Origin: Dictyostelium discoideum
Taxonomy: Eukaryota
NCBI GenBank assembly: GCA_000004695.1
Contig: CM000151.3
Location: 3,136,001 to 3,200,000, forward strand
Reading direction: 5' to 3'
DNA length: 64,000 bases
The notes under the pieces were generated by a model, which was not told where the DNA came from, did no database searches, and worked only from the letters and a program-made list of their open reading frames with translations. Position 1 is the first letter of the stretch, and every line of letters starts with the position of its first letter. The translations under genes and the position numbers were made by a program. Shown in pieces: positions 6,226 through 39,522 of this stretch.

Positions 6226-7611
6226 AATTATAAAAATAGAAAAAAGATATGGTTGGGTTATTTAAAATAATAAAAAAAAAAAAAAAAAAAAAAAACCTGA
6301 AATATTCGTATTAATGGAAAACTTTGAAGGTGGAACAAAGGTTATTTTAAACAAGTATTTTCATTAAAGATTATAGGAAAAAAATAAATTAAATAGTTTT
6401 ATTTTTTTATTTGATTTATTATCTCATCAATGCTTGTTGCTGTAGTTGATAAAATATTGATGAAATAAATTAATGAAATTCTATGTCACCCCCTAAAAAA
6501 AATAAAAAAAAACAACAAAAAAAACCTTTGTATGTCCAATAAATCCAATTTATTTTTTATAAATAATTAATTAATTATTTAAGAAGTATAAAAATTTTAA
6601 GGAGATTTTTTATTTTTATTTTTTATTTTTATTTTTTATTTTATTTTATTTATTAAAAGGAAAAAAAACATTAATAATTATAAAACCAAGGAAAAATATT
6701 GTTTTAATTAAAACAAAGATTTTAAAGTTTTAAATTATTTACATTTTTGATTTTTGAAAAAAAAAAAAAAAAAAACAAGGAACTTTTATCATTATATATA
6801 ATCATTATATATAATTATTTTTATTATTATTATTATTTTAACTATTTTATGTTAATGATTAGAGTGATTTATAAATTATTTTTACTTGTTTAACTGCTAT
6901 GGAAATTGTATGACTGTTGATGATAATAGTTTTTAAAAAAATTATAATTTTATTATTATAAATAATATTTATAAAAATAAAAATAAAAATAAAGTTACAC
7001 TAAACAACAACAAAGGAGTAAAGAGCTACAAACTAAAAAAACTATACCATTATCACTTAAAATATCTGCCCAAAAGCAAGTATTAAAGTAAACCTTCTAG
7101 AACAATAGAAAATATAATAAAAGATTCACCCTATTGAAACCTTAAATGATTAACAAAAATTAGAATATAAACAAAAAGGTCATACCAAGGGAAACATCAT
7201 TTTGTTTATCAAAATACATAATTAATTATTTTAATACAAAATTATTATTATTATTATTTACAAATAAAATTACCTAGTTAATATTTTTAAAAATTTAAAA
7301 AAAATAAAAAATTTTATAAAGTAAAAAAGTAAAAATAAAAAGTAAAATTAAAAATTAAAAAGGGGGTAACATAATAAATAAACTACAAAAAATAAAAATT
7401 TTAAAATCATTAATAATCATTATTATTATTATAAATAATGAGGCAAACAGTTAAATTTAAAAAAAAAGAAAAAATGAATAAAAAAAAAAAAAAAATACAA
7501 ATGGACCGATAACTTTTTTTTACTTTTATTTTTTTAAAAATAAAAAAGTCATCTCCATACTAATAATATTTATTTGGTTATTTTTTTGGTTTTTAGGAAA
7601 AAAAAAAAAAA

Positions 7612-7711
7612 NNNNNNNNNNNNNNNNNNNNNNNNNNNNNNNNNNNNNNNNNNNNNNNNNNNNNNNNNNNNNNNNNNNNNNNNNNNNNNNNNNNNNNNNN
7701 NNNNNNNNNNN
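7612..7711. other. Assembly gap of 100 N
   Basis: A run of exactly 100 'n' characters. Confidence 1.
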
Positions 7712-8102
7712 TAAAATTAAAATAATAAAATATTAAAAATAAAAAAATTAGTGTGAATGAAACATTGACAATTTGGAAAATGAATAAATAAAAAAAAATA
7801 AAAAAAAAAAAAATAAAAAACAAAAAAAAAAATAATAAAAACAAATAGTAATAATAATAATAATATTGATACTAAAAAAATAAAATAAAATAAAATAAAA
7901 TAATCTAATAGACATATTTTTTATTATAAAAAAAAAATAATAAATAATCAAAAAGTAAGTATATTAAAATTTTTATATATACCCATACTTGAATCTTTTA
8001 GATAATGATTTATTTCATATGTGATGATGATTAAAGTAGAATTTAGGGTAGCTTTTTTTCTTTAAATTCATTTTAATGAAAAAACAAATATATTTTTAAT
8101 TT

Positions 8103-8139
<37 letters not shown>

Positions 8140-8361
8140 CTTTAATTTTATCACTATAAAAACAAAGTTTTTTTTTTTATTTTTTTATTTAATAATTATA
8201 AATTTAAAATTAACAGTAAAATTAAAAAAATAATAGTATACTATAAAAAATGGTATGGATAATGTGGTATTATTTATAATAACGTTTTAAAATATTAATT
8301 ATTTTCATTTATTTTTTTTTTTTTTTATTTTCTCAACAAAATTTTATAATTGTAGAACAAA

Positions 8362-8553
8362 ATGAATATCTTGATTGTAATTATTATTATTATAATAACA
8401 ATAAGTTTTTCCCTTGGTAATGTGAATGAATGTTATGCAAATTGCTTCAAAAAGAATACTAGATACTGTGGAAAGGATCAATTTCTTTGTGATGTAGTTG
8501 TTGGTAAATGCCAAGAAAGTTGTAATATTGAATTTGGTATTGAACAAAAATAA
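8362..8553 (+). CDS. Small secreted six-cysteine peptide of 63 aa, single exon
   Basis: ATG in A-rich context. The signal-like N-terminus is '[19 protein letters not shown]'. The mature part is 'NVNECYANCFKKNTRYCGKDQFLCDVVVGKCQESCNIEFGIEQK', with spacing C-x3-C-x7-C-x6-C-x6-C-x3-C. There is a tandem paralog at 9108..9400. Confidence 0.6.
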   Translation: MNILIVIIIIIITISFSLGNVNECYANCFKKNTRYCGKDQFLCDVVVGKCQESCNIEFGIEQK

Positions 8554-8729
8554 ATAAATTTTAAAAATAATAATAATATCAATTATAATAATTATAATAA
8601 TAAATGAAAATTTTAAAACATATCAATGAATTAAAAATAAATATAAATTTAAAAAAATAATAATTAAATTTTTTATGTAATAATATGTTTTTTTTTTTTT
8701 TTAATCAAATTTAAAAATAAATAAAAAAG

Positions 8730-8765
<36 letters not shown>

Positions 8766-9107
8766 AAAAAGAAATAATTATTTTTTTTTTTTTTTTGTTG
8801 GGGGTAATTATGTATATAATTTCAAAAAATGGTAATAATTAATAAGATCTCCTTTTTTGTGGGTGTTTTTGGTATAAATATTAATGAAATTATATGAAAA
8901 AAACTTTATTAATACCACCCATTAATTACTATTATTTTTTTTTTTTTTTTTGTTTTTTAATATTTTTTTTTTTTTTTTTTTATTTTAAAATAAAAACAAA
9001 AATTTAAAAAAAGATTTTTAAATTTGACAAGGGTTTTAACTTTTTTTTTTTTTTTTTTTTTTTTAATTTATAAAATCTAATTATTGAAACAAAATAAAAA
9101 TAGAATA

Positions 9108-9400
9108 ATGGTAAAATAAAATTTTTTTTAACAATTTTTTTATTTATTTATACATATTTTTTATTAACAATAAAATATTTTTTTTTTAAAAAACAAATTT
9201 TAATCTTTTAGAAATTAACTCTCTTTTTTTGTATTTTTTTAGTGGTTTATTTAATGATAATATCATCAAATGGAATAAATGGTGATTGTTATAGTGATTG
9301 TGTTGATGATAATAGAGAATTTTGTAAAACTGAATGGTCAAAATGCGTTGTACTAATGCAAAAATGTAGAGATAATTGTGATGTACAATTAGAAAATTAG
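9108..9400 (+). CDS. Paralogous small secreted six-cysteine peptide of 63 aa; exon 1 is the ATG only
   Basis: Model: join(9108..9110, 9212..9400). The ATG at 9108 is immediately followed by the donor GTAAAA. The 101-nt AT-rich intron ends at 'TCTTTTAG' (9204-9211). Exon 2 encodes 'KLTLFFCIFLVVYLMIISSNGINGDCYSDCVDDNREFCKTEWSKCVVLMQKCRDNCDVQLEN*'. The cysteine spacing is identical to 8362..8553 (C-x3-C-x7-C-x6-C-x6-C-x3-C). An in-frame TAG directly upstream of exon 2 rules out a single-exon reading that includes the signal peptide. Confidence 0.5.
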
Positions 9401-9927
9401 TAATAATAAAAAAAAAAAATAAAAAATAAAAATTTAAAATAAAAAATAAAAAAAAATAATAATGAAACATAAAATATTTATAACAAACATAATAAATATT
9501 TAAAAATTTTTAAAAAAAAAAATTTATTGTTATTTTACATTAAATAAAAATAAATTAATAAATTTTTTAAAAATATTAAAGATTTTAAAAATTATTATTA
9601 TTTAATCTTTTTTTTTTATAATATCTCCAAACAATTTACTTGTTTTTTTTTTTTTAAATTAAATGATACCTCAATTATTTACTCATTTGTTTGATATATT
9701 AAAATTGAAAAGAGTGTTAATTAAAAAAAAAATTTCCATTTTTATATAAAATGGAAAAGTATTAATGTTTAATATATTCTTTTCATCTTTTAATTTTAAA
9801 ACAAATAGAAACTATTTTTTTTTTTTTTTTTTTTTTTTTCCTAAAAAGAATAAATAAATAAATTATAACAAGCTTAATAATAATAATAAAATTTAAAAAA
9901 AGAGTGAAAATTAAAATAATTATTTAT

Positions 9928-11088
9928 TTATTTATTAAAAAAAGAAGGTGTAACTATATTAATATTATTACAATTTGAACAAGATAATTGAATTTCATGA
10001 TTTGAAGTTAATGTATTTAAAATTGGTATCATTGGTTTTGAATAATATAAACCTGTACATTTCTTTTGAGAACAATAAAACTTTGAAATCCAATTATCCA
10101 TTGAATCAATTGAATTTGAATCACCATTACATCTTGGACAAATACAATCAAAGTAATAACCATACTTTAATTCATCTTTTCTATCTTGTATTGGTTGATC
10201 TAATTCAATATAAGATATTGTCAATTGGTCACCCTTTTTAATTGGATATAATGATTTAAATGTCATATTACTACCATCTCTAACATCTGTACAATTTGGT
10301 ATACAAGAATGATTAAAATAACTACTACTTGGTGATACTGCAACACCAATACACTTATCATTCTTTGTCCAAATTCCAAATTGATTACATCTAGTTTTAT
10401 GTATAATTGATCTACTTTTTTCATTAATTTTCCTAATCATTTCAATTTTATCATCATTATTAATTATTGATTTTGTTGTTGTTGACCCTAATAATACTAA
10501 ATTAAACAATTCACTTATAAATTCAACGATTGAATCAATTCTTTCTTTTGCTGCTGGATTTGATTCTTCTGTAACTTGATTTTCTACTAAATCAAAAACA
10601 TCATCTAATGTATTTGTTAATTGTTCATTATCATTATTATTATTATTGTTGTTATTTAATTGTTGTTCAATAAATTTATTATTTAATAAAATATCTTGAT
10701 AATATCTTGATAACAAACCAACGATCATTCTAATTTCTGTAAATGTTTCAATATCAAAATTTGGATAAACTTTTAATTTTGGTGATTTTAATTTTTTATA
10801 AAATTTACATTCATAATGTTGATGTTTATTAATATTTTCATTTTTACATTGTTCATTACAATACCAAATTTCATTACATTGATTACATTTTAATGATAAT
10901 TTAATAACTGATGGTAATTGTTTAATACAATTAAAACATGATGTTGTTTTTAAAGTTTCTGATGTAACTGCAAAATATGATTTACATTTTAATAAATCTT
11001 CTCCAATTTGAATATCACGAGTTGCTATTAAATAACGACCTTCATTCTCTGAACTTTTTAATTCTAATCCATTAAAAGATTTAAACAT
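9928..11088 (-). CDS. SET and MYND domain-containing (SMYD-type) lysine methyltransferase, copy 1
   Basis: Single 386-aa ORF. The MYND zinc finger is 'CFNCIKQ...CNQCNEIWYCNEQCKNENINKHQHYECKF'. The SET domain shows the 'NHSCIPNC' motif and 'FKSLYPIKKGDQLTISY'; the post-SET region is 'CICPRCN'. The gene is 57% AT-rich but structured (not low-complexity) outside a short poly-N tract. Confidence 0.85.
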   Translation of the reverse strand: MFKSFNGLELKSSENEGRYLIATRDIQIGEDLLKCKSYFAVTSETLKTTSCFNCIKQLPSVIKLSLKCNQCNEIWYCNEQCKNENINKHQHYECKFYKKLKSPKLKVYPNFDIETFTEIRMIVGLLSRYYQDILLNNKFIEQQLNNNNNNNNDNEQLTNTLDDVFDLVENQVTEESNPAAKERIDSIVEFISELFNLVLLGSTTTKSIINNDDKIEMIRKINEKSRSIIHKTRCNQFGIWTKNDKCIGVAVSPSSSYFNHSCIPNCTDVRDGSNMTFKSLYPIKKGDQLTISYIELDQPIQDRKDELKYGYYFDCICPRCNGDSNSIDSMDNWISKFYCSQKKCTGLYYSKPMIPILNTLTSNHEIQLSCSNCNNINIVTPSFFNK

Positions 11089-11333: not shown

Positions 11334-11872
11334 TTAATAATTTGGTTTATTTAAATAAAAATTTGAATTAACAATTAATTGATCATTACAAGTTGAACAT
11401 GATAATTGAATTTCATGATTATCAATGTTGGTTAATGATTGTAGTGATAATTTTAATTTTGAATAATATAAACCTGTACATTTCTTTTGATGGCAATAAA
11501 ATTTTGAAATCCAATTATCTAATGAATCCTCTAATTTACCAGTTGGATCAATATCTGTTGAATTACATCTTGGACATTGACAATGAAAGTAGTAACCAAA
11601 TTTCAAATAATCTCTACGTCTTTTAGTTGATTTATCTAATGCCAAATAAGAGATATTAATTTGGTCACCTTTTTTAATTGGAAATAATGATTTAAATGTC
11701 ATATCACTACCATCTCTAACCGATTCACAATTTGGTATACATGAATGATTAAAATAACTACTACTTGGTGATACTGCCATACCAATACATTTATCATTCT
11801 TTGTCCAAATTCCAAATTGATTACATCTAACTTTTTGAATTAATGGTCTAATTAATTTAATTAATTCTTCAA

Positions 11873-11962
<90 letters not shown>

Positions 11963-12575
11963 CATTACTATTATTATTTATTGTTAATTTTAATATATTT
12001 ATAATATATTCAATAATATTATCAATATATTCTTTTGCTACACTATTTGTTTCTTCATTTATATCATTTTCTACTAAATCTAATACACCATCCAATGTAT
12101 CTTTTATAAAATCTTCTTCATCATCTTGTTGATTATTTATTATTATTGATGAATTGAATTTATTATTTAATAATTTATCTTGATAATATCTTGAGAGTAA
12201 ACCAAGTATTATTCTGATTTCAGAGTATGAATCGAAATCGAGTTTTGAATTTTGAATTAATTTTGGTGATTTTATATTGTTGAAAAATGCACATTCATAA
12301 TGTTGATGTTTTGCTTGATTATCTTGTTTACATTTTTCACTACAATACCAAACTTCATTACATCCAAAACATCTTGGTACTTGTTGAGGTGATGGTGATT
12401 TAATTAACTTTATACAATTGTAACAACTATTCTTTTTAAAATCTTCACATGTAACTGCAAAATATGATTTACATTTTAATATACTCTCTCCAATGTCAAT
12501 ATCTCTATTTGCTATAATATACCTTCCCTCTAACTCTGAATTCGATAATTTTAATCCATCAAAAGATTTAAACAT
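11334..12575 (-). CDS. SET and MYND domain-containing (SMYD-type) lysine methyltransferase, copy 2 (tandem paralog)
   Basis: A 413-aa ORF with the same architecture and the same N-terminus ('MFKSFDGLKLSNSELEGRYIIANRDIDIGESILKCKSYFAVT') as the neighbouring 9928..11088 gene. The same MYND and SET ('NHSCIPNCESVRDGSDMTFKSLFPIKKGDQINISY') motifs are present. It contains a 29-codon poly-N insertion encoded by an (ATT)n run at 11866-11970. Confidence 0.85.
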
Positions 12576-26928: not shown

Positions 26929-28974
26929 TTTTTATTATTAAGTTGTTCAATTTTTGATCAATTACCAAAATTAAATAGTGATTTTGAACCAGATTATGGT
27001 GATATTTCAGTTGGAATGATAAAAAATGTATTGGAAGGTGATAGTCCAACATTAGCATCAAATGATCCAAATTTTAAACCATTTGTAAATGGTAAATTAA
27101 AAAATTTAAATTTATTTCCAACATGGTTTAATAAAAACCATACACAAAATGTAATGTTATTAAAGAAATTAAATTTAACATTGGATAAATCATCAAATAT
27201 TTATTCATTTGTAAAGGATGATTTCTTTCCAATTGATTATCAAGGTTGGGATGTTGATGAGAGTAATAGAATCTATTATGGTGGTAGAATTTTTACAGCC
27301 TATCATAACTTTCATTATTGTTTAAAGATTAATTCAGTATTCTTTTATCAAGGTACTGAAACTTTTAAATTTGAAGGTGATGATGATGTTTGGGTATTTA
27401 TTGATAAGAAGTTGGTCTTGGATTTAGGTGGTTTACATCCTGCTAGAAGAGGTACTGTTGATTTGACAAAGTTGGGTTTACAAGTTAACAAAACCTATTC
27501 CTTTGATTTCTTTTATTGTGAAAGACATACACCCTATAGTAAAATGAAAATTCAAACTGATATTCAAGCATTTTGTGCATGGTCTGATTATTGTGGTGTT
27601 TGTCAAGGTGATGGTTCAACATGTTGTAATAAAGACCTTGATTGTGATGACGATGATCCATGCACCATTGATAGTTGTCCATTACCAAATTTACCAATTC
27701 CAGGTGGTGATAAAATTTCAAAATATTGTAGACATACCAATATCACTTGTACACAACCATCAAATAATAAATGTGTAATCACTGGTTGTTCAAAAGATAC
27801 CAATGGTAAATGTGAAGTAATTGGTAATTTAGAATGTGCCGATAAATCTAAATATTGTATGACGCTAACTGGTTGTGATCCAAAACTTGGTTGTCAATAT
27901 AAATCAAATTGTATTGGTCCATGTTTAACTGGTGAATGTAATAATGGTAAATGTACCAGCATGGATGCTGATTATTGTTCCAATGAATTGGGTGAAGATC
28001 CATGTAAAATTTATAGTTGTAATGCAAAGAATGGTGGTTGTATGGCAACTCCAAAATGTACTTCCCCTTCCTCCTCCAATCCATGTGTTATTCCAACTTG
28101 CTCCGCTGATAAAGGTGTTTGTGGTACATACACTCAAAATAGTACAGAATGTAATTGTAATTGTAAATTAAACCCATGTCAAAAGAATAACTGTGATCAA
28201 AGTGTAAATCCACCAGTTTGCTCCCCACTACCAATTGATACCATTGATGATGGTAATCCATGTACAATCGATATTTGTGATAAAATAACTGGTAGTGTTA
28301 AACATACTCCAATGGAATGTTCTGGTTGTACCAAATGTAATAATGGAAAATGTATTCCAATTGAATCCAATTGTGATGATGGTAATTTATGTACCATTGA
28401 TCAATGTATGAACAATGGTAGTTGTATTCACACACCTCTATCATGTAATATCACCAATCCATGTATGGATTATACTTGTAATGCTGATATTGGCTGTGTT
28501 GGTGTACCAAAAATTTGTCCAAACAAAGGTAATTGTCTAATTGGTTATTGTGATGCTGGTGAATGTAAATTAAAAGATCGTATTTGTGACTCACCTTCAT
28601 TTTGTCAAATTTCTCAATGTTCCGATGTGACTGGTTGTATTGTTTTCGATAAAGTTTGTATACCTTCAAATCCAAAATGTGAAACTGGTGTTTGTATAAA
28701 TGCTACTTCAACTGAACCAGGAAGATGTGAATCGGTTGATTTTGATCCAAAACCTTTTGTTTGTAAACCCGCTGCAATCATATCAACCTCTGTTATTGTT
28801 GGTGTTTCAGTCGCTGCTGCTGTAGTTGCCATTGCTATTGTAGTTGCTTCTAAAAAAGGTTATGATGCATGGGCTGCTTCAAATAATAATTCTCTTGCAT
28901 CTTTAACTTCAAATCCTTTATATGAAAATCCAACTGGAAATGGTGATAATCCAATGTATCAACCAAATTCTTAA
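26717..28974 (+). CDS. psi-family protein (PA14 domain, Cys-rich repeats, C-terminal transmembrane anchor), two exons
   Basis: Exon 1 is 26717..26801, encoding 'MKIILTLLIILFSLNKNLNFVSSEVTKS', with donor GTATGT at 26802. Exon 2 starts about 26927 (±1), just after the A26-AG acceptor, and runs to the stop at 28972-28974. Displayed coordinates are off by one in this homopolymer region relative to the ORF track. The PA14 domain includes 'GWDVDESNRIYYGGRIFTAYHNFHYCLKIN...FEGDDDVWVFIDKKLVLDLGGLHPARRGTVDL...FDFFYCERHTPYSKMKIQT'. About 20 repeats of C-x-C / 'PCTIDxC' modules follow, then the TM segment 'IISTSVIVGVSVAAAVVAIAIVVASKK'. Confidence 0.85.
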
Positions 28975-38938: not shown

Positions 38939-39434
38939 TTATTTATATTGTTGATATTGTTGTTGGTGCATAAATCTTTGTTGGTTTTGAAAATTTTGTT
39001 GTTGATTTTGGAAGTTTTGTTGTTGTTGTTGATTTTGGTTTTGAAAGTTTTGTTGTTGGTTTTGGAAGTTTTGTTGTTGGTTTTGAAAGTTTTGCATTTG
39101 ATTCTGAAAGTTTTGTTGCTGTTGTTGGTTTTGAAAGTTTAGTTGTTGTTGGTTTTGAAAGTTTGGTTGTTGTTGTTGGTTTTGAAAGTTTGGCTGATTT
39201 TGGTGATAGTTTTGTTGTTGGTTCTGAAAGTTTTGTTGTCGTAATTGATTTTGAAAGTTTTGTTGTTGATTATTAAAGTTTAATAATTGATTTTGAAAAT
39301 TTTGTTGATTTTGAATATTTTGTTGTTGTTGATAGCTTGGAAGATATAATTGTTGATTGTTATTGTTGTTATTGTTGTTGCTGTGTTGTGGATGCTGATG
39401 TTGCTGATATTGATTTTGTTGTTGATGTTGTTGC

Positions 39435-39522
<88 letters not shown>

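Follow-up and report, generated by a model that had tools for sequence, protein, structure and literature searches.

A tandem pair of predicted secreted six-cysteine peptide genes in Dictyostelium, with comparative support for an ATG-only first exon

Two small genes, here called copy 1 and copy 2, lie in tandem on the forward strand of a 64-kb stretch of Dictyostelium discoideum chromosome 2 (the window; ~13–29% G+C with long homopolymer runs), with 554 bp between the stop codon of copy 1 and the ATG at which we propose copy 2 to begin. Copy 1 is an intact open reading frame (ORF) at 8362–8553 (+) and matches exactly the annotated 63-aa AX4 protein DDB_G0273255/DDB_G0273585 (UniProt Q557F9). 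Copy 2 corresponds to DDB_G0273395/DDB_G0273587 (UniProt Q557F8), which in AX4 is annotated with only 48 aa, as the model begins at an internal methionine, Met16 (MIISSNG..., ATG 9254), and consequently lacks a signal sequence. Each gene carries two DDB_G identifiers for one identical sequence in the 8.48-Mb AX4 chromosome 2 record, a pairing which we take to reflect the AX3/AX4 chromosome 2 duplication. Both genes are thus already in databases as hypothetical proteins and the loci themselves are not newly discovered; neither the four DDB_G identifiers nor the UniProt accessions are mentioned in the main text of any paper searched. A first-pass annotation made from the DNA letters had described a same-strand pair about 550 bp apart that encodes peptides with identical six-cysteine spacing, and this description holds, with C-x3-C-x7-C-x6-C-x6-C-x3-C present exactly in both 63-aa products.

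The copy 2 coding exon has an open frame that extends upstream of Met16 until it is closed by the TAG of TTTTAG at the end of 9111–9211. The first-pass annotation had read this TAG as the 3′ splice site of a 101-nt intron preceded by an exon that contributes only the ATG at 9108, and the sequence is laid out as it described; splicing would yield the 63-aa product MKLTLFFCIFLVVYLMIISSNGINGDCYSDCVDDNREFCKTEWSKCVVLMQKCRDNCDVQLEN. We compared the orthologous loci of AX4, D. firmibasis (L001) and two D. cf. discoideum strains (L002 and L003), four genomes in all. The motif around the start, AATAGAA(N)AATGGTAAAATA, is invariant in all of them, and the acceptor AG is kept throughout (TAG in three genomes, AAG in one), with intron lengths of 101, ~117, 105 and 111 nt. 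Beyond the acceptor the frame is open, free of indels and hydrophobic (KLTLFFCIFLVVYLMII..., KITIFFCIFLVIYLMII... and KSKLFYFFFLLFISIII...). Identity between AX4 and D. firmibasis is 66% in the intron, with 16 gap columns, 77% in the signal-peptide part and 88% in the mature part, which aligns without gaps. The earlier statement that the ATG exon offers the only route to a methionine fails for AX4, where Met16 is in frame, and stands for D. firmibasis: there Ile takes the place of Met16 and, apart from the ATG exon, no in-frame Met precedes residue 50, which leaves that exon as the sole possible start. The four-genome comparison therefore supports the ATG-only first exon of copy 2, as first proposed, over the AX4 annotation.

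Copy 1 very probably has the same ATG–intron–exon structure, which the first-pass annotation overlooked in assigning an ATG-only exon to copy 2 alone. At its candidate start, all four genomes carry AAAAATGGTATG unchanged (AAAAATG|GTATG), and the acceptor YAG|AAY AAA ATG is conserved and in frame (TAG|AAC AAA ATG in AX4). The putative intron between these signals is poorly conserved and ranges from 81 to 109 nt, with the 81-nt form in D. firmibasis; between this species and AX4 it is 58% identical with many gaps, while the mature coding part is 87% identical and gapless. The copy 1 model of D. firmibasis (P0002, 66 aa, MNKMNKM...) begins at the homologous ATG and includes the start-codon intron. 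The D. firmibasis annotation was generated with MAKER, which drew on genome-guided Trinity transcripts and on the D. discoideum proteome (PMC11193728), and, as the AX4 copy 1 protein lacks the N-terminal extension, the P0002 model appears to derive from transcript evidence. The mature copy 1 peptide is identical whether translation begins at ATG 8250 or at ATG 8362. Because both genes appear to share the ATG exon, the intron, the coding exon and a TATA-like/oligo-dT layout, the ancestral unit was likely composed of a short 5′ untranslated region with the ATG, an intron of ~100 nt and a single coding exon, and was then duplicated in tandem.

The arrangement ATG|GT...AG|codon 2, with a phase-0 intron between codons 1 and 2, is that of start-codon introns, and in the Dictyostelium pair the putative splices are marked by conserved signals. 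Start-codon introns have been described as a class across vertebrates, arthropods, fungi and plants (Nielsen and Wernersson 2006, PMC1626468), so that the term 'unusual' initially applied to the copy 2 structure was overstated. The published start-codon-intron peak is found in proteins without signal peptides, especially ribosomal proteins (PMC1626468), whereas both genes described here encode signal-peptide proteins, and Dictyostelium lies outside that data set. Literature searches for start-codon introns in Dictyostelium returned nothing usable. In the window, a scan for ATG|GTA[AT] candidates gave as convincing cases only the two peptide genes and a conserved ATG at 8829; a further candidate at 27089 was rejected, as it falls inside the continuous ORF of a PA14 gene.

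Three other gene models were weighed against the ATG-only exon. Translation of copy 2 from the internal ATG 9254 would give a 48-aa cytosolic peptide and make the upstream ATG|GT and hydrophobic frame coincidental. This is the current AX4 gene model (DDB_G0273395), Met16 is shared by AX4 and both D. cf. discoideum strains, and an open stretch of 14 codons has a probability of ~0.19 per genome by composition alone; the change of Met16 to Ile in D. firmibasis, however, leaves such a peptide without a start there, and the 21 upstream codons are indel-free and hydrophobic in four genomes next to an intron that gathers indels. Together with the invariance of ATG|GTAAAATA, the clear signal peptide of the paralogue copy 1, and the general consideration that a six-cysteine peptide is unlikely to form the implied disulfides in the reducing cytosol, this makes the internal start improbable. 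A first exon at ATG 8829, joined through a 380-nt intron ending at 9211, would encode the same protein and was likewise judged unlikely. The remaining model treats both units as exons of one gene with one signal peptide and two Cys domains, in which copy 1 would be spliced from ...NIEF|GT to an acceptor inside the signal-peptide region of copy 2. Two independent D. cf. discoideum annotations take this form, with the pair fused into proteins of 110 and 114 aa (P0001 and P0005), and the same GT donor and TAG acceptor occur in the AX4 sequence. Yet D. firmibasis lacks both the donor (TTTGGAGTAG) and the acceptor (TTTTTACTC) at the homologous positions, the copy 1 tail GIEQK/GVEQK with its stop codon, which would turn intronic, is conserved as coding sequence in four genomes, and the region skipped upstream of copy 2 retains an intact hydrophobic ORF and the conserved ATG|GT. 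Separate genes are annotated in both D. firmibasis and AX4, and a fusion would be typical predictor output when the ATG of exon 2 is not found. We therefore regard both the single two-domain gene and the splice it calls for as very improbable, and retain two separate genes with putative start-codon introns. The locus is then mis-annotated in three ways that trace to the ATG-only exon, namely the AX4 truncation, the D. cf. discoideum fusion and, in D. firmibasis, a spurious 16-aa out-of-frame call within copy 2 exon 2 (L001:7096–7146).

Table 1. Coordinates of the two peptide genes and associated elements (window positions unless an L-numbered locus is given).
Feature	Position	Strand	Details
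Copy 1 candidate TATA box, TATAAAAA within ACTATAAAAACAAAG	8155..8162	+	followed by an oligo-dT run, 8168-8178
Copy 1 candidate start codon, last 3 nt of exon 1 (ATG|GTATGG)	8250..8252	+	four-genome invariance; P0002
Copy 1 candidate start-codon intron, 103 nt, GTATGG...TTGTAG	8253..8355	+	conserved in-frame YAG acceptor
Copy 1 coding exon	8356..8553	+	annotated ATG 8362; predicted signal peptide to ~8418; mature 8419-8550; stop 8551-8553
Conserved non-coding block between the genes	8800..8920	.	37-nt core 8816-8852
Copy 2 candidate TATA-like box, GATTT[A/T]TAAATTT	9013..9025	+	followed by a T-run, 9041-9065
Copy 2 proposed start codon, sole coding bases of exon 1 (ATG|GTAAAATA)	9108..9110	+	invariant in four genomes
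Copy 2 proposed start-codon intron, 101 nt, GTAAAATA...TTTTAG	9111..9211	+	conserved signals, variable length
Copy 2 coding exon	9212..9400	+	predicted signal peptide 9212 to ~9274; mature 9275-9397; stop 9398-9400
Fused D. cf. discoideum models	L002:6001-7020 and L003:3001-4097		

The N-termini of both pre-peptides (63–66 aa) are hydrophobic and are predicted from hydropathy to be signal peptides. The maximum Kyte–Doolittle mean over 10 residues is 4.40 for copy 1 and 3.29 for the extended copy 2, compared with 0.60 for the annotated 48-aa version. Plausible cleavage sites, placed by eye according to the −3/−1 rule, are SLG|N in copy 1 and SNG|I or ING|D in copy 2. The mature peptides, 41–44 aa long (~4.8–5.1 kDa), are hydrophilic by their grand average of hydropathy, with net charges of 0 to −4 and isoelectric points (pI) of 4.3–6.3. 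Between species, the ratio of nonsynonymous to synonymous substitution (dN/dS, Nei–Gojobori) over the mature part is 0.07–0.10 for copy 1 and 0.20–0.26 for copy 2, at dS values of ~0.26–0.76. By these ratios each paralogue is under purifying selection, and the copy 2 value argues against a pseudogene. The diversification typical of effector or antimicrobial peptides that had been suggested initially is not borne out by such ratios. The pI range is not that of cationic peptides.

Across the six frames of the window the exact Cys pattern occurs at only these two sites, microsatellite poly-Cys aside, and it was absent from all 200 shuffled sequences. The one other match is a (TGT/GTT)n microsatellite at 39426–39521 that reads as poly-Cys in one frame. 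A 652-aa ORF at 27016–28974 (+), with a PA14 domain and Dicty_CTDC Cys-rich repeats, accounts for every other relaxed six-Cys match in the window; it has no relation to the two peptides. BLASTP aligned the two products with 29% identity at E = 4e-9; this paralogy and the window-unique motif imply that the shared pattern is real and not due to chance. Outside the cysteines, identity between the mature parts is only 4/33 (12%; 16% inside the Cys core), well below the ~35% initially estimated. The pair consists of tandem, anciently duplicated paralogues that are old and divergent from each other, each being conserved in its own right.

The family had gone unrecognised in the first-pass annotation, and searches against larger collections gave the same picture. 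A Pfam scan of both products yielded zero matches at E ≤ 10, a word-indexed protein search returned family members alone, and an exhaustive profile search over 1.84 billion representative proteins found the family and two spurious repeat proteins (P0006 and P0007), which we rejected as relatives, since they resemble translations of tandem repeats, with short stretches matched over and over. A profile search of PDB sequences gave one insignificant match of 14 residues (E = 0.39). Among the annotated proteins searched, the family is accordingly confined, by sequence similarity, to the D. discoideum/D. firmibasis clade. An EGF fragment, which had been named as a possible known domain, finds no support, with the Pfam scan empty and an all-alpha structure predicted; an EGF-like domain was rejected on these grounds. 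The twin-CX3C small Tim and CHCH (twin CX9C) proteins were rejected in view of the missing Pfam match, the N-terminal hydrophobic signal and the six cysteines with other spacing, and saposin-like proteins and amoebapores (Apl) in view of the missing Pfam match, the mature length of 41–44 aa and the two predicted helices.

The neighbourhood is the same in AX4, D. firmibasis and D. cf. discoideum, with Sybindin upstream and SET-domain genes downstream. The latter, directly downstream of the peptide genes, are tandem paralogues with SET domain and MYND finger, whose ORFs lie at 9928–11088 (−; 386 aa) and 11334–12575 (−; 413 aa); they are likewise found in D. firmibasis and D. cf. discoideum. An assembly gap of 100 N at 7612–7711 lies ~650 bp upstream of copy 1.

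In each of the four genomes both genes show a parallel promoter-like layout, in which an oligo-dT run comes after a TATA-like box. The TATA-containing 15-mer of copy 1 is found in 4/4 genomes, 81–100 nt upstream of the conserved ATG|GT, and the TATA-like box of copy 2, also in 4/4 genomes, is 81–95 nt upstream of the ATG exon. A TATA box with oligo-dT is a known promoter architecture in Dictyostelium, and by analogy both boxes are putative promoter elements.

The conserved block between the genes has a 37-nt core, ATAATTTCAAAAAATGGTAATAATTAATAAGATCTCC, that is invariant in 4/4 genomes although dS of the flanking genes is ~0.5. Inside this core lies a third AAAAAATG|GTAAT (ATG 8829). The block further contains the G-rich boxes GGGGGT, GTGGGTGTTTTTGG and ACCACCC as well as an inverted repeat, TATATAATTTCA...TGAAATTATATG. 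Its minus strand carries ACCCACAA, which resembles the upstream sequence element of Dictyostelium non-coding RNA genes. An Rfam scan of 7000–11000 gave no match, folding of the single RNA and of the alignment yielded z = −0.30 and −1.01, respectively, and no covariation was found; a non-coding RNA was therefore rejected. A 22-aa ORF in the block carries a frameshift in D. firmibasis and was for this reason not accepted as coding. The block is probably a cis-regulatory module for copy 2.

Published expression data place both genes late in development. In the filter-development time course of Rosengarten et al. (2015), both DDB_G0273255 and DDB_G0273395 belong to the lists UP_Hr18_rapid and UP_Hr20_gradual (PMC4403905, Additional file 7, filter_UP), and neither is found in any DOWN or suspension list. 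This membership indicates that both are co-induced at ~16–18 h, at culmination. In maturing fruiting bodies (Kin et al. 2022, PMC8808424 Data S1), copy 2 (DDB_G0273395) is present at 254/138/147 transcripts per million (TPM) in the wild type and 71/102/70 TPM in cdl1a− (log2 fold change −1.84, false discovery rate (FDR) 0.17), and copy 1 (DDB_G0273255) at 99/58/76 and 62/50/46 TPM, respectively (log2 fold change −1.15, FDR 0.58). That data set gives identical values for each duplicate locus, and its reads were mapped to the annotated coding sequences (CDS), so that it is silent on the splice. Both transcripts trend lower in the cup-cell-deficient cdl1a− fruiting bodies, a hint, not statistically significant, of cup- or stalk-associated expression. 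The genes are unlisted in the supplementary tables checked of Kin 2018, Lamrabet 2020 and Edelbroek 2024; for the bacterial-exposure RNA sequencing study among these (PMC7078664) this is a weak negative, given that the tables may be partial.

To describe the peptides structurally, we modelled the mature parts with AlphaFold2 from four-sequence alignments. Copy 1 is predicted to form two antiparallel helices, residues 2–17 and 21–38 (mean predicted local distance difference test score, pLDDT, 86.9), and copy 2 a kinked helix of residues 3–19 antiparallel to residues 21–40 (mean pLDDT 83.2). In the copy 1 model, helix 1 carries Cys 5, 9 and 17, and helix 2 carries Cys 24, 31 and 35. Adding the positions in pairs, 5+35, 9+31 and 17+24, gives 40, 40 and 41, as in an antiparallel ladder, and from the residue numbers of the predicted helices we infer the disulfides C1–C6, C2–C5 and C3–C4. 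The best whole-chain structural matches were plant alpha-hairpinins, i.e. nigellin-1.1, luffin P1 and the Jug r 2 hairpinin. Helical hairpins excised from large proteins score as high, implying that the match reflects a resemblance in fold class and offers no evidence of homology; a Foldseek search against the PDB gave nothing meaningful.

Alpha-hairpinins have a helix-loop-helix fold with ladder disulfides (PMC11591084, PMC7191063), and the set compared here comprised EcAMP1, VhTI, BWI-2c, luffin P1, vicilin-derived hairpinins and the six-Cys nigellin-1.1 (PDB 2NB2). The likeness lies in the length of ~35–45 aa, the predicted helix-loop-helix and the CX3C pairs on opposite helices, placed for ladder disulfides; two antiparallel helices with a short loop are indeed found in the predicted models. 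The defining motif of the family is C1X3C2X4-20C3X3C4 or, in the six-Cys members that exist in plants, C1X3C2X3C3X4-20C4X3C5X3C6, with X not Cys (PMC11591084). The Dictyostelium peptides depart from it, as their inner cysteines are X7 and X6, not X3, from the outer pairs: the outer CX3C pairs are 21 residues apart with two further cysteines between them, and the third pair is placed two helical turns further in, where it closes a loop of six residues. They also differ in that no sequence homology is detectable among the 1.84 billion representatives or PDB sequences, in the precursor, here a single-domain prepeptide with its own signal peptide where hairpinins are vicilin-derived or multi-modular, in the host, an amoebozoan and not a plant, and in the acidic to neutral charge. 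Despite the predicted disulfide-stapled hairpin, the peptides were therefore not classed as alpha-hairpinins, and convergence is the simplest reading of the resemblance.

A comparable CX3C...CX3C helical-hairpin design is seen in the CS-alpha/alpha toxins (scorpion kappa-hefutoxins, OmTx and cone-snail hairpin peptides), whose C1–C4, C2–C3 connectivity is noted in an alpha-hairpinin review (PMC7191063). These toxins, however, are 22–27 aa long with two disulfides, act as venom ion-channel blockers, have no sequence relationship to the Dictyostelium pair and were not among the top structural matches. A further comparison is offered by the Euplotes pheromones (Er-1 etc.), helical mini-proteins of ~40 aa with six cysteines and three disulfides that protists secrete as extracellular signals; these form a three-helix bundle, have another Cys spacing and no sequence similarity to the pair, and come from an unrelated lineage.

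Our combined explanation, which we hold to be somewhat better than an even chance, is that tandem start-codon-intron genes encode secreted, disulfide-stapled hairpin peptides with a binding role. The signal peptide would bring the pre-peptide into the endoplasmic reticulum, where signal peptidase would then remove it; the six cysteines would oxidise to a three-rung ladder that staples the two antiparallel helices into a rigid hairpin of ~5 kDa, and the folded peptide would be secreted into the extracellular space of the culminant or sorus. There, a stable fruiting-body peptide may bind a specific partner, as a late-development signal or inhibitor. Confidence is high for the gene structure and the peptide class and low for the function. 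Several points weigh against this explanation. The 9110^9212 and 8252^8356 splices are read from conservation, and the published quantifications mapped reads to the annotated CDS; a collection of 15 billion proteins contains no exact match to either spliced product, the 63-aa copy 2 or the 66-aa copy 1. The conserved CTATAAAAAATGG of copy 1 might represent a promoter element and not a start codon, and the annotated ATG 8362 also yields a complete signal peptide. Neither FDR for dependence on cdl1a reaches significance, and cell-type enrichment was found for neither gene.

With respect to function, a signalling ligand or other specific binding role comes nearest to an even chance, though it falls short of one. 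A signal or inhibitor is favoured over a cationic membrane-lytic antimicrobial on account of the sequence conservation and the neutral to acidic character of the peptides. As analogues of plant alpha-hairpinins, the peptides could nevertheless be antimicrobial defence peptides that guard the spore mass or attack bacterial membranes or targets. They are small, predicted to be secreted and disulfide-rich, their predicted hairpin belongs to the fold class of nigellin-1.1, luffin P1 and the Jug r 2 hairpinin, and they are expressed while spores are packaged; against this, their low charge, acidic to near-neutral pI and hydrophilicity are unlike typical cationic amphipathic peptides, selection between species is strongly purifying with no arms-race diversification, and their absence from the bacterial-exposure tables counts weakly in the same direction, those tables being possibly partial. 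Antimicrobial defence is thus unlikely, and a membrane-active antimicrobial peptide, about equally unlikely, ranks below the binding and inhibitor roles taken together. An inhibitor role in general is doubtful. In its specific form, that of canonical-loop protease inhibitors like VhTI and BWI-2c, a basic loop residue would be offered to a secreted developmental protease. A Lys is present in the C3–C4 loop region of both paralogues (C-G-K-D... and C-K-T-E...), a rigid disulfide-stapled scaffold would suit the task, and the alpha-hairpinins include trypsin inhibitors that carry an Arg in the loop (PMC7191063). The Lys, however, sits at different positions in copy 1 and copy 2, the Pfam, profile and PDB sequence searches revealed no similarity to any inhibitor family, and there is no experimental hint of inhibition, which leaves this form of the proposal quite unlikely.

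What is new is the corrected copy 2 model and the start-codon-intron architecture common to both genes, together with a family of two members, restricted to one clade and predicted to be three-disulfide helical hairpins, whose Cys register lies outside the published hairpinin motifs, and its link to culmination. None of these results is a major surprise. They correct a reference-genome gene model, DDB_G0273395/DDB_G0273587, which is annotated without its signal peptide, and the case illustrates how gene predictors stumble over ATG-only first exons. If the predicted fold is true, the disulfide-stapled helical-hairpin design would reach the Amoebozoa with a new six-Cys register, which would lend it some interest as a case of convergent evolution and as a compact, stable scaffold. 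A more speculative and rather unlikely extension is that the peptides are disulfide-stapled alpha-hairpin hormones, released at culmination, and as such a novel type of peptide signal in protists. They might coordinate terminal differentiation, either spore encapsulation or stalk and cup maturation, via a specific receptor, and their fold would have arisen independently of both plant alpha-hairpinins and CS-alpha/alpha toxins. For the biology of Dictyostelium, the pair provides an orphan family of culmination-induced, predicted secreted mini-proteins in a model organism in which several late secreted factors are molecularly undefined.

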